The position numbers were made by a program. Below, piece by piece: positions 9,001 to 15,000 of a stretch of 44,616 nucleotides of DNA. How positions within the stretch are numbered: position 1 is the first letter of the stretch; the number at the start of each line of letters is the position of its first letter. Origin of the DNA: Escherichia phage phiv205-1; sequence record MN340231.1; one strand, given 5' to 3'.

Positions 9001-12000
9001 CGTAGCTACGGTGAATTTTGGGCATAAAAAAACCCAGCCGAAGCTGGGTCGTTGCGTTGGTTATCTGTCAGTAGTTATGTACTGAAGGAGGTAATTCTTT
9101 ATTCTTAAGTCTCATCCATGCGGAAAGATTCGTTGGTCCGTCTGGCTCATTGATATCAACATCTCGTGTGTGGTTTATTAAAACGTCTCTCGCCATTCCG
9201 ATAACATACGAGAATTCATGACCGTAGTCGTAGCATCTGCCGGAATAGTTCGATTGAATTTGTTTTAGCGCCGGATACAGTTCGCGGAATAATGCCTGTG
9301 AGCGGTTGGCATAATCCCATAACCATACAAGGCTGTTTGCTTCTTTTGCAGAAAGCTCGTTGGTTTTCTTCTCTTGTTTGCCAATGAACTCACCTTCAAG
9401 CACTACCCTGTGGATGTACTCTACTGCTTGTGGTATCTGAGATGCATCAAGCTCTTCAATACTTTCCACATTGAAACGCTGATGAATCATTGCATAAGCT
9501 TCTGGGTACATTAGATGCTTTTTGCTGACTAGCATATTTACAGCATCACGAAGCGGAGTCCTGTCATCAACAGATGTTTTCTTCCGTGCATTTACTGCCT
9601 CTCCCTTTGTCCAGTAGTCATGCAGCACAGTAAAGCATTCTTCCTGGTACTGAATCAGTTTATCGCGGATGTCAGCACGAACTTTCTCAGGGTTGATGCT
9701 GAACAGCCATCCATTTAACTTCTTCAAAGGAAGGCAGAGTAGCTTACGAAGCTTACCATCAGCGGCAACCATGTTCATATGAACACAGTTGAATTTGCTA
9801 ATCTGCTTCATGAGTTTTGTTTGCTGCGTTGACCAGCTCATTCCGAGGTTTTCAACGATTGGCTTCATCGCAACATATGCAACTCCGGCAGCCATGGCGG
9901 TGATAATTTGCTGACCGTTGAATGGCACGTAAGAGGTGTTCACTGCTTCTAAAATTGCTATACTATTCATGTTGGTTTTTCTCCACGGATTTACCGACAA
10001 CCGAAGCCCTGACTGTTCCAGCAGTTGGGGCTTCACTGTTTTGATTTCTTTGCCGCATCAAGCATCACTTCTGAAAACGTGCGCTTGCCACTGAATACTC
10101 TTTCTCTTCTCAATTTTTCGTTCGTGCCAAATGATTCGCCATGAACAAAATTTGGTCTTAAAATGGTAATCGCAATCTCTTTGACTACTGCATCCAAGCG
10201 AATCACACCGTTACCCCCTCTCTCTTCAGGCTGTCTATCAGGCGCTTGATAACCTCTGAGTTAAACGACCTGCACTCTTCCTTTGCCCTGCTACCGATAG
10301 CATCCTTTAACGACTGCGGCATCCTTACCAAAATCTTACTTATTTCTTTCTCCATGTTACCCTCCACGCAAACAACTCTTTTCGAATACAAAAGATAGCA
10401 AAGTGAGTATATCTAGTCAAAATTTTTTTGCATACACTTTGATATCAAATTGAATACCAAAGGTGTGATATGGCAAAGGGTGTGTCAATTTCTCCAACTA
10501 CGGTAAGAATCCCTGAATCTTTGCGCGAGGCTCTTGCTGTTAGAGCATCAAAAAATGGTCGCTCTGTTAACTCCGAGATCGTCATGATTTTGCAAGCCGC
10601 GATTGATGAAGATAGGTCGCCAAAGTCAGTTGAGTCATTTGCTCAGCAAGAAGCTGACAAATTCAAAGAGGCGCTGCTGGAGACGCTGAAAACCATGTAT
10701 GGTAAGGATGATAAATAATGCTGCACACAATTCATTTCTTATGCCCCGTTAACACCGCCACTGTTGGGCAACTTCAGAACCACTGTCTCACCGCATTATC
10801 TCAAGGCGCAACTGAATTAAATATCCATATATCAAGTCAGGGAGGGGAAACTGCCGCTGGCTTTACTGCGTATAACTTTCTTAAGTCACTCCCTGTTACC
10901 GTTAGAACTCACAACATAAGCAATGTTGAATCCATAGCTAATATCGTTTTCCTGGCTGGCTCAGAACGTTTCGCAAACCCATTATCAAGATTCCTGTTAC
11001 ATCCTCTATTATGGGGCTTTGCCACCCCAGCCGCCGACCATGCCAGATTGAGAGAGTACGGGAAATGCCTCGATAACGATCTTGATCGCTTCGTTGAGAC
11101 GTTCAATATCGACATCGGAACCCATATTAGGTGGGCATCCCTGATAGCAGACTCGACCATTTTGGATGCTAACAAGGCTCTTGAGCATGGCATAATTAAT
11201 TCCATAAAAACTGCAAGGCTGGTATCCAATCAGGCAAACTGGTGGGTTGTTTGATGGGTAAATCATGATTACTCCTTATAAAAAACCCACCTGACGGTGG
11301 GTTTTATTAGTGCTTGTATAGGTTGAACTCTCTATCAAGCCATATAACAAAAAATGTCGATCCAAGACGATAACCAACCATGGCTTTCAAATCATCAAAT
11401 CTAAAAGCCAAGAAATGATCTACGTCTTCCGTTATATGACTGGGGATACCTGCTTTAATTGCACCCCTTGCAATCTTCTCAAATCCAAGCTTATGCCTAC
11501 CTTGCTGCTTAATCTCTGCCCATGTTAGTTGACTTAATCTGTATAATTTATCAGCTAAGCCAGCTTTCTCATCTTTTTGGCATTTCGTTATGCAGTGAGA
11601 GCTTTGGATGTAACAGAATGAAAATTTCGGTTTCTTTTGATCTGAATTCCCCCCTGACTGCGGCCCTAACTTTAACTTACCTGTAGATTCAGCAGGGGGG
11701 ATAATCCTTTTAGATTTTCTTGCCATCTCGTTAGTTAATCCGAGTTGCAAAGTACTCTGCCATCTCCTTAGAGCTAATTTCAGAACCACCAACACCCTCA
11801 ATATAGTTTGATCTCCATGGTGACTCTTCGTGTGTCATGTTCCTCAGTTTCCAGGCAGAAAATTGCCCAAAAACATCCCAGACTTCTTCTAATAGCTCTA
11901 ACTGTTCTTCGCTGAATTTTCAGCATCAAAAGACTCTGGAGAAGGGATAGCGCCATTACCATATTGTTTATAACGGCGATAAAGCTCAGGGACAACAGGG

Positions 12001-15000
12001 CCATGCATCCAAGCTTCCATCTTATTCTGAAAAAGAGGCTCGCCAAGCAACGCCAATGAAAAACCCTGAGCATAGTAAACAAGCTTTTGTAATTTTAAAT
12101 TAGAGATTGTGTCACCGCTATCCTCGTCACACCGCGACAGGAAGTAGTCGGCGACATCAAAACAAGTAAGCATGAACACACCTCCATCTTGATAGCCACA
12201 GCTAAGTATCCAACTATGTCAAATGTCATTTAATACTATAACAAAGCTATCAGCAATCCTTCGGAGGCTAACTTACAACCACTTTAGCGACATGTTTAAA
12301 CCATTACGTTTCACATTTACTGCATTTTCGCCGAAGTTACCTATAAGGTAATGTCACATTTCCTGCAAGTTTCATGCAATGTTGAAAAGTGAGCTATTCA
12401 CTTTTCTATGACACCAAACACCAAAAATAGCACTTTTTGCTAAATCATTCGTCCAAGTTGTGGATGGTTTGTCGTTGACACGTTTTCACACACCACTCCA
12501 CCAATAAAGTATCATCTGGTATCCTGCTCAAAACTAAGGAGGTTGGTGTGAAGAAAAAATTTGTAAACGTTGCAAAGTGCGCAATTTTTATATTTTTTAT
12601 GACCTTTTACGGATTTAGTGCCGGAGAAGGTTTCGATCGTGATGCCAATGCATTCAGTTTCTTTTGTCTGTCTATAGTGGTCATAATTGTATGGGTGGAA
12701 TTAAAGCAAACATTGTTTCATGTGCTAGGGAAATAACCATCCATGGCATTTAGTCACTGCTGTGTTGCCTCAGTGGCAAGCAGCGGTCTGATGGCATTTG
12801 CAGCGTTACTTAATGCTCTTTCATAGGCTGGCGTTCCTGCTTTGGTGTTTGCCAGACGTAAGAGCGCATTCCTGGCCATAGGGCTTTCATAAACCATCGA
12901 CATAAGGCCAATCCCTGTTTCCCCAGCCAATAGCGCGCCTCCGGTTTTTAGGTTACCAATAACCCTTACCAAAGGCGCGAGTGTCATGCCAGTCTTCGTC
13001 ACAACATTAGCCTCAGATGCTCTTTTGGTAGCATCGAGAATAGATAACATCCCCTCTATCTCTTTTCCGTTCTTCCCACCAAATACAGTTTTAAACACCT
13101 GACCATTTGCTTGTTTTTGCAGCTTGCCAAGCTCGGTCATCATTTTCTGAGGGCTGTCACCTACCTTGTCAGCTATTTTGCTGATATATGCCGCCCTTAG
13201 CATGTCTTTACCTTTTTGATCGAGTTTCCCGTACAATCGAGCTATATCTGACCCATATTGTCCATACACAATGGTATTTACAGCCTCGGGAGTTAAATCT
13301 CCTTTGTTTAGAACGTTTTTAAGGCGCGTTTGAGTTGCATGTGTTGCCATTTTTGCATAATCAGCTTTTCCCGCTCTCCATGCTGAAGCATCTTTTGGGC
13401 TAAGTCCTTTCGCTATAGATTTACTAAGGCTATTGGTTAGCGAGTTATAGACCCTGTCGACCATTGTTTGCGACATTGATGGCAGAACTGTACGATCGCC
13501 TTTTACGTCAATGCGGAACTGAGTTCTCAGCTTATCAAGTAACTCAAAGGCATCATCTCCATTTGTTATCTCCTGAATGGCATTCTTATAATCATTAAGC
13601 GCAGAAATGGTCTGGGTGTCAGAAACACCTTTAAGTTTCCCAAGTTCGTTTACTGCTCCGTCGATAGCTCTTATGGCGCCACTTGTATCAACTGGCTTTC
13701 CAACCATTCTTCCTGACAGGCTGTTTAGTTTTGACTTGGCTAACGATTTTTCCCTTGCAACGCCTGACTTTAGACTATCAACGACTACAGATGGATCGTA
13801 GTCGCCGTATTTTTCGGTGAAGCGATTAACAAGCTTGGTTCTGGCATCCTGCTGTGCGGCTCTCATTGGTCCAGTACCAGCTATGACTCCTTCTGAGTAA
13901 CCCTGCAGTTGATTGCCAAGTTTTGTTTTTGGAGGAACTACATCCGATGTCATAACTGGTACATCTGCCGCAGCGGCACGCTTGAGCAATTGCTGATCTG
14001 CTGGTGATATTTCGCCACGAACAGCAGTAATTCCACGCCCTATTCCCTTTGCTGCTGCGGAAAGAACCCCCTGAGCGGCAAGGTTAACTCCTGCATTTTT
14101 AGCTGCATTTTGTGCGAAATCGCCTTTCTGATTTGCGGCCTCTGCCAGTGATCCAATAGCCATGCTTCCTGCCGTTCCAACTCCTGGAACTAAATACCCG
14201 CCAATTGTTTCTCCAGCTTGCGCATAAGGGTCTGTTGGTCGATCTACTGGACGATAGACATCGTCCAAAACCTTGGGGCCACCAAGCCCCTGGCTGATTG
14301 CATTAATCAGACTTGCGCCACCCTGCAATACGTCAAATGGTATGTTTACCAGACCACGACCAGCCTGCTCTGCAATTTGCCCTGCACTTTGACCACCAGT
14401 GAGCCAATCGCCAGCTTGTTGCATCAATGATGGTTCTTCTTTCTGCTGCTGAGGCGGAGGGTATGCTGCATAAAACTGATCTCTTGCTTCAGCCCATTTG
14501 TCACCAGCCTTAGGGGCAACAACCTCATCAAAATATTGCGCTTGAGCCTGTGCTTTCTGTTCTTCAGTTAACGCCTGATACTGTGGAGAGGCGATAACAT
14601 CTTTCCATGCTTTAGCCATTAATCACCCCATAGTGAAGAAAAGTTACTGCTGGCTGCTGGCTGTGATACCTGTGTAGGTTGAGATTGCTGCCGCTGAGAT
14701 TTACCAACATTAACGTTATATTGCTGGTTGTAATTGTCGGTATATTGCTGAATGTCGCGCATTGATTGTTGCAGTGCTTCAGGGCTTGAGAAATCAACCT
14801 GTGGCATACCTTGAAAATACATCTTTGCTTCTGCAACGGTGTTGATACCGGATGCCCCCATGTCTCTGGCTGCTGCAATGCCCTGATTCTGCATCTTTCC
14901 TTGGATTCGCTGTGCAGCGTTGTATAGTTTCCTCTGATCACCACCAGATGCACGGCTACGAATATCTGCACCAAGAGCAGGAGAACCTGAAGAGCCTGTA

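Follow-up and report, generated by a model that had tools for sequence, protein, structure and literature searches.

A prophage-borne Panacea cassette with a putative BECR RNase partner and a singleton frameshift in Escherichia phage phiv205-1

Introduction

Does the interrupted Panacea gene of Escherichia phage phiv205-1 mark the decay of a toxin-antitoxin-like pair, or does the interruption belong to a single sequence record of a module that is otherwise intact? The question arises from record MN340231.1, a stretch of 44,616 nucleotides (nt) that was analyzed at its full length (referred to below as the window). As cited in PMC10052878, Liu et al. 2020 describe phiv205-1 as a prophage of avian pathogenic Escherichia coli (APEC) strain DE205B. 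The original prediction for this locus comprised a Panacea (DUF4065) gene, here called panA or gene A, whose reading frame breaks at a homopolymer, and a tightly following, unrecognized open reading frame (ORF) of 139 codons, here called gene B; both were interpreted as an uncharacterized toxin-antitoxin-like module in an exclusion hotspot. The reading that we favor, with a probability of roughly 55%, is that the two genes form an accessory moron composed of PanA and a latent BECR endoribonuclease under PanA control, and that the break in panA is private to the record.

Results

The Panacea gene and its partner are encoded on the minus strand. Gene A starts with an ATG at position 12173, which is preceded by GGAGG at a distance of 7 nt, and encodes a protein of the form MLTCFDVADYFLSR...KLQKLVYYAQGF...EAWMHGPVVPELY up to a TAG at 11900-11898. 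This 91-codon ORF (11898..12173), which comprises 84 native and 7 out-of-frame residues, corresponds to the annotated product QGF19913.1 of Escherichia phage phiv205-1. The frame is lost at 11917..11920, where the window has T4 on the plus strand, i.e., A4 on the coding strand, and the relatives have five; the 3' part of the gene (11731..11916) continues one base along in the adjacent frame with KFSEEQLELLEEVWDVFGQFSAWKLRNMTHEESPW...ATRIN until a TAA at 11733-11731. Insertion of a single A results in a product of 147 amino acids (aa) that is equal to WP_000954425.1. The predicted length of 149 aa is obtained only from a GTG two codons upstream, the start chosen in the annotation of Salmonella phage vB_SemP_Emek (hereafter Emek), so that the repair restored the full Panacea domain as anticipated but not the stated length. 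The repaired protein matched PF13274 (SocA_Panacea) over positions 1-112 of 113 with 87.3 bits (E 1.8e-24; gathering cut-off, 25.7 bits), and the 91-aa ORF of the record matched positions 1-54 of 113 with 53.8 bits. No uninterrupted ORF across the whole Panacea domain is present in the window, where only these 54 positions are in frame. By its profile match, gene A is a Panacea/DUF4065 gene. The ribosome-binding site, the Panacea N-terminus and the frame break at the 4-nt homopolymer had all been described correctly, and the profile search, for which an empty result had been named beforehand as refuting, returned the expected domain. The second ORF was likewise found where it had been placed: gene B (11307..11726, minus strand), a putative stand-alone RNase of the BECR/RelE-like type with 139 aa, opens with an ATG at 11726, 4 nt past the repaired panA stop, ends with a stop codon at 11309-11307, and is intact and identical to WP_024173453.1.

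The break in panA is restricted to this record. In a collection of 15 billion proteins, the 91-aa protein is encoded on 1 contig and the intact 147-aa protein on at least 1000. Among the complete E. coli genomes with the segment, all 48 have A5 at the frameshift site and none has A4, and A5 is also present in the alignments with phage Emek, APEC IMT5155, and strain A41. Furthermore, the single base in panA is the only difference between the window and the chromosome of E. coli DE17 across 44,616 nt. On these grounds, the sequence comparison identifies the panA break as a private singleton in a short homopolymer, without accompanying substitutions. Programmed frameshifting and phase variation were excluded, because the frame is unbroken in all relatives; moreover, the A5 run is short and lacks a slippery heptamer. 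Three single-base indels that separate the window from IMT5155, the panA site included, first suggested that the window might be error-prone overall. At the other two sites, however, the window agrees with DE17, VTB96815v, and EC13, and IMT5155 is the odd one out; the argument is therefore weaker, as the panA site alone is private to it. The loss of one base from a homopolymer is the most typical sequencing error, and we regard an error of sequencing or assembly at the homopolymer as somewhat likelier than a real mutation. A real break would represent a null allele of very recent origin. Decay of the gene versus a 1-nt homopolymer error was the right pair of alternatives. The further conclusion that the partner "must be inactive or controlled otherwise" does not necessarily follow from a break in 1 contig versus at least 1000 intact ones, because the break may be absent from the real phage. 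The frameshift is of consequence chiefly as a caveat to the annotation of the phiv205-1 record.

The association of the two genes extends far beyond enterobacterial prophages. Pairing was investigated at 80 loci, each from another GTDB species, that cover Cyanobacteria, Acidobacteriota, Desulfobacterota, Planctomycetota, Proteobacteria, and one methanogen-related metagenome-assembled genome (MAG); 2 loci are interrupted by a contig end. A PanA homologue is located immediately 5' of gene B on the same strand at 78 of the 78 testable loci (phmmer E values of the intact homologues, 1e-38 to 1e-71), and the two genes are separated by +2-nt gaps or overlap by 1 to 20 nt. The pairwise identities of the A proteins and the B proteins are correlated (r = 0.85; Mantel test, 0/999), a sequence-level pattern that supports a functional link. 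The conserved pairing, whose absence had been set beforehand as refuting, was accordingly retained. A third conserved gene was not detected at 71 loci, apart from local synteny inside one cyanobacterial genus. Kurata 2022 delimited such systems by a Panacea gene at most 100 nt from its partner, by an architecture that is present in at least two species, and by the absence of a longer operon; the locus studied here has a spacing of 4 nt, pairing at all testable loci, and no third conserved gene.

Precomputed Pfam annotation places PF13274 directly 5' of gene B at a 4-nt spacing in Morganella and Vibrio cholerae, and the Morganella pair is located at the end of a lambdoid prophage. In V. cholerae (L092:3175-4027), the pair at its 4-nt spacing is found amid DUF645, acetyltransferase, and glyoxalase cassettes in an integron-like arrangement, and this setting looks like the superintegron, which is rich in toxin-antitoxin cassettes. 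Disruptions affect either gene. The A gene is broken next to an intact B gene at locus L073, where it is frameshifted, and at locus L082, where it is mostly deleted on a complete chromosome; panA is also disrupted at L013, and a disrupted B gene accompanies an intact A gene at L031, L052, and L059. In L073, an Acidobacteriaceae MAG, the panA frameshift lies between residues 77 and 85 and hence at nearly the same place as in the window (L073:2498-2918), and in L082, Tunturiibacter gelidiferens, only PanA residues 93-146 are left (L082:2832-2981).

Gene B belongs to a large family of its own. A word-indexed search found 182 homologues, and an exhaustive profile search increased the family to 1562 representatives at 50% identity, the best 150 of which are without exception short stand-alone proteins, almost every one about 127-150 aa long. 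Pfam assigned no family to gene B or to 49 family members, all matches being at chance level, and NCBIfam reported for gene B only MAG6450_fam with 15.3 bits (cut-off, 40). The AlphaFold2 model, which is based on an alignment of 49 diverse members and has a mean predicted local distance difference test score of 89, consists of a basic, disordered N-terminus of 30 residues and a beta-alpha-alpha-beta-beta-beta-beta core, i.e., a predicted RelE-type (RelE/YafQ-like BECR) fold. Residues R77, H78, E83, R109, R120, Y137, and H139 are invariant or nearly invariant in the family alignment and are compatible with an H-R-H site of the kind described for the PB-BECR1 domain (see below). A relationship at the sequence level emerged from the PADLOC model PDLC03891 of NsnC, a component of the Menshen defense system: residues 31-135 of gene B match positions 178-279 of 284 with an E value of 5.9e-6, and all 49 sampled family members match the C-terminal region of NsnC (best E value, 1.7e-10). 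These profile matches indicate that gene B is homologous to the PB-BECR1 domain of NsnC. The C-terminal region of NsnC has been designated "PB-BECR1" (PMC12065111) and is described there as an RNase effector of the YafQ-like BECR type that contains an H-R-H triad.

Both genes are part of a two-gene cassette (11263..12556, minus strand) that consists of a leader of about 370 nt, panA, gene B, and a terminator. The cassette is 99.3% identical in the P22-like phage Emek (window positions 12556..11263) and 99.4% identical in an unrelated, baseplate-bearing prophage of E. coli A41 (window positions 12537..11280), where it adjoins a LexA-family gene; the homology stops at these borders, and the block common to enterobacterial prophages has a size of 1.27-1.29 kb. 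Because a 99% identical block is present in two unrelated prophage backbones, sequence comparison characterizes the cassette as a mobile moron that brings along a leader and a terminator of its own. The leader or promoter region (12174..12556, minus strand) lies within the common block and is without an ORF of note. Conservation of the leader was not found in comparison with the divergent cassettes of Morganella, Xenorhabdus, and Vibrio, a simple scan of its minus strand revealed no consensus promoter, and Rfam detected no riboswitch or small RNA 5' of panA, apart from terminator-like sub-threshold matches. A bidirectional intrinsic terminator (11280..11305; AAAA CCCACC gtca GGTGGG TTTTTT) is located between gene B and a convergent ClpP-like gene. 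It was read directly from the sequence and is a rho-independent terminator in the Emek record; the simple scan missed the hairpin, and Rfam gave only sub-threshold terminator-like matches at this position. What phages EC.P3 and E212 have in common with the window (about 11250-11381; 88.6% identity) is limited to the final ~75 nt of gene B, the terminator, and the next ~30 nt. This stretch, which lacks the remaining cassette, may be a recombination scar or a leftover of cassette loss.

With respect to the surrounding prophage, host flanks are included in the window with yfdC (1-933), tRNA-Arg(cct) (1009-1083; probable attachment site), and, at the right end, dsdC. The cassette is positioned between a gp16-like injection gene and the Arc/Mnt-Arc-Ant genes of the immI type, the slot in which P22 has sieA; the predicted location in an exclusion hotspot was thus supported. 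The neighbor that converges on the cassette (10470-11254, plus strand) is a 178-aa ORF of the ClpP family (PF00574, E 4e-12) that lies immediately next to an Arc/Mnt-like ribbon-helix-helix gene. SocA, the founding member of the Panacea proteins, acts as an adaptor for ClpXP. The ClpP-like gene was considered as a third component and rejected, because the common block ends before it and other hosts have Arc/LexA-like genes at that position.

Several genes of the prophage are damaged. An IS66 insertion sequence (tnpC/tnpB/tnpA, about 6348-8660) interrupts an endosialidase-type tailspike gene at about 3572-8967 and separates a C-terminal part (about 3572-6310) from an N-terminal stub (about 8755-8967). 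IMT5155 and DE17 carry this insertion as well, and the prophage is probably unable to form infectious particles. A TolA-like gene (about 38450-39418, plus strand) has the annotation of a pseudogene, with an internal stop or a frameshift, in every near-identical relative, and the two private single-base indels of IMT5155 are found in this region, opposite 38429 and 39243 in the window. The prophage also contains partial ead and DUF2737 genes. Two tRNA genes, tRNA-Thr(tgt) and tRNA-Asn(gtt), are located at 29153-29308 on the minus strand between an antiterminator Q-like gene and the lysis genes.

Discussion

The kind of system present in phiv205-1 is already known: it is PanA with a partner of cluster T1. 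The pair of phage Emek, which is 99% identical to that of the window, was catalogued by Kurata 2022 (PNAS 119:e2102212119; PMC8832971, Dataset S1) as YP_006560565.1 (PanA, noNTD) and YP_006560566.1 (T1, 'mRNase' by HHpred) in the order A|T; the designations "uncharacterised module" and "unrecognised ORF" of the original prediction were therefore wrong. Cluster T1 accounts for at least about 217 rows of Dataset S1 (PMC8832971). The same study validated nine other pairs of PanA and a partner as complex-forming toxin-antitoxin systems that behave as type II, and Ernits et al. 2023 (PMC10440598) reported that stand-alone Panacea can neutralize partners directly and put forward the hypothesis that Panacea is primarily a sensor. 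With regard to T1, the results are different. Expression of the Emek partner from pBAD33 in E. coli was scored as 'not toxic', the same score was given to another T1 member, from E. coli MOD1 (Table S1), and both neutralization of the T1 partner by PanA and complex formation are listed as 'n/a' (PMC8832971). The prediction of a toxin-antitoxin-like pair is consequently upheld in part, by the Panacea domain and the conserved pairing, but its classical form is weakened by the published non-toxicity, an outcome that had been set beforehand as refuting. Later work on the T1 family was not found within the literature searched, and the supplements of NetFlax 2023 do not list the accessions of the pair. 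The link between T1 and Menshen is mentioned in neither PMC8832971 nor PMC12065111, the latter of which contains the word 'Panacea' 0 times.

The combination of conserved pairing, a RelE-like model, and a negative toxicity score is most consistent with the following scenario. PanA, in its intact form of 147 aa, would be translationally coupled to the 139-aa gene B product, a latent endoribonuclease whose residues H78, R109/R120, and H139 appear to resemble the H-R-H triad of PB-BECR1. PanA would bind gene B directly and keep or set its activity; it might perceive a trigger, e.g., phage infection, in response to which it would release or activate gene B. The pair would thus be a conditionally activated toxin-antitoxin or exclusion module that is not constitutively poisonous, and the cassette would serve the prophage either in exclusion and defense or as a stabilizing toxin-antitoxin-like module. 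Non-toxicity on overexpression does leave room for such a conditionally activated enzyme. A real break in panA would remove the C-terminal 43% of the Panacea domain and end translation 172 nt ahead of the weak ribosome-binding site of gene B, whose expression would probably be lowered, because translational coupling would be lost. Such a null allele would be tolerated, as gene B alone is non-toxic to E. coli; its viability fits the published non-toxicity and the two loci, L073 and L082, with a broken A and an intact B.

Several observations weigh against this scenario. RelE-superfamily families occupy the top ranks of the Foldseek search as well, but with E values of at least 0.26 that are not significant, and the gene B profile matched neither PDB sequences nor, in hhalign comparisons, YoeB and YafQ. 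The RNase function of gene B is predicted from its fold and its conserved residues only, and both the A:B complex and the role in defense are proposals. At the A4 site, the sequence by itself does not separate an error from a very recent mutation. Finally, the published toxicity test was based on a mis-started ORF. The Emek record opens gene B at a TTG inside panA (L001:4509-4995), which results in 161 aa, a 62-nt overlap, and 22 extra N-terminal residues, while the 139-aa start is backed by RefSeq and the family alignment. A false negative is possible, because the tested ORF carried these 22 additional residues.

The latter aspect is central for the best surviving alternative, a classical type II pair in which gene B is a constitutively toxic mRNA interferase of the RelE type that is continuously neutralized by a labile PanA. 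The frameshift would then have to be a sequencing error and the 'not toxic' score an artefact of the 161-aa construct, which is in line with the singleton nature of the panA break and with the N-terminal extension of the tested protein. The arrangement with the antitoxin gene first, a spacing of 4 nt or overlaps, and an own terminator, the RelE-superfamily fold predicted by the model, the occurrence of the pair among cassettes that resemble the V. cholerae superintegron, and the nine validated pairs of PanA with other partners (PMC8832971) all conform to this pattern. Nevertheless, E. coli, itself a natural host of the cassette, was not poisoned by either of two independent T1 members, and gene B is still intact at L073 and L082, where gene A has a frameshift and has been mostly deleted, respectively. 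Moreover, the additional residues need not inactivate the protein, because the first 30 residues of gene B are predicted to be disordered. We therefore consider a classical type II pair unlikely.

A genuine decay, which would have begun with the panA frameshift in a module that is useless to the DE205B lineage and would extend to gene B later, appears rather improbable to us. The prophage is already degraded, as exemplified by the IS66 insertion in the tailspike gene, the TolA-like pseudogene, and the partial ead and DUF2737 genes, and losses of either partner do occur, with disrupted A genes at L013, L073, and L082 and disrupted B genes at L031, L052, and L059. Yet the allele was observed once among more than 1000 contigs, substitutions or any other private change are lacking across 44.6 kb, so that a lineage-specific sign of decay is missing, and the loss of one base from a homopolymer is also what a sequencing error typically looks like. 

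Least probable of all is that gene B is neither toxin nor nuclease but, e.g., a regulator, an anti-defense factor, or an RNA-binding factor that reuses the RelE fold with PanA as its partner or chaperone, because the double 'not toxic' score (PMC8832971) and the lack of a match to a Pfam toxin family, which would suit such a role, are opposed by the strong conservation of His, Arg, Glu, and Tyr at positions that are characteristic of BECR RNases, by the homology to the sole putative effector domain of Menshen, a defense system with experimental validation, and by the exclusive pairing with a domain known from antitoxins.

Returning to the accessory moron with a latent endoribonuclease under PanA control, a more specific version can be offered tentatively: PanA-T1 might be a prophage-borne, trigger-dependent RNase switch that reuses PB-BECR1, with Panacea as infection sensor or activator, and not an addiction pair. 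If true, this would explain why a large cluster of PanA-associated 'toxins' was scored as non-toxic, and the phiv205-1 allele, provided that it is real, would represent a natural panA knockout and show that the effector stays silent when its partner is missing. Of the partner clusters associated with PanA, T1 is one of the largest, and its function has so far been predicted. The new aspects of the current study are the link between T1 and PB-BECR1 of Menshen, the use of a mis-started construct in the published negative test, and the status of the frameshift as a singleton. The sequence link to PB-BECR1 supplies concrete candidate catalytic residues to mutate, and the published negative toxicity result deserves to be repeated with the 139-aa protein.

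In comparison with known systems, the T1 pair of phage Emek (Kurata 2022) is the same cassette, with a nucleotide identity of 99.3-99.4%, the order A|T, and a stand-alone Panacea protein. It differs in that panA of the window has a 1-nt deletion and that the Emek annotation begins gene B 22 codons and gene A two codons early. Cluster T1 as a whole was predicted to be a toxin-antitoxin pair, and the published test was without toxicity. The position of the cassette is that of the slot adjacent to sieA/immI of P22 and the prophages of Lederbergvirus, between the gene-16-type injection gene and mnt/arc/ant, but the cargo is different, and the present cassette also occurs in an unrelated prophage backbone and in non-phage contexts. 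With the type VI system SocAB of Caulobacter, the pair shares the Panacea domain, which is common to SocA and PanA, whereas the score of 71.4 bits with the NCBIfam SocA equivalog NF047745 is far below the cut-off of 190, and the partner has a RelE-like predicted fold and is not SocB. Unlike the toxins of the RelE/ParE superfamily (RelE, YoeB, YafQ, HigB, and ParE), to whose members in Pfam, NCBIfam, and PDB it has no sequence match, gene B is predicted to have an extra basic and disordered N-terminus of 30 residues and an insertion of 17 residues between strands; it is paired with Panacea and not with RelB, YefM, DinJ, or HigA, and it has been published as non-toxic. A further counterpart of gene B is NsnC of the Menshen system (PMC12065111), as both appear to contain YafQ-like BECR domains with conserved His and Arg. 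Gene B is a stand-alone protein without the inPIN N-terminal domain of NsnC, in place of which only the 30 disordered residues precede the core, and genes for NsnA (ParB-DUF262) or NsnB (ABC ATPase) are not located nearby, the neighbors being panA and the ClpP-like, Arc-family, and gp16-like genes. The control of gene B would hence come from PanA and not from NsnA and NsnB.

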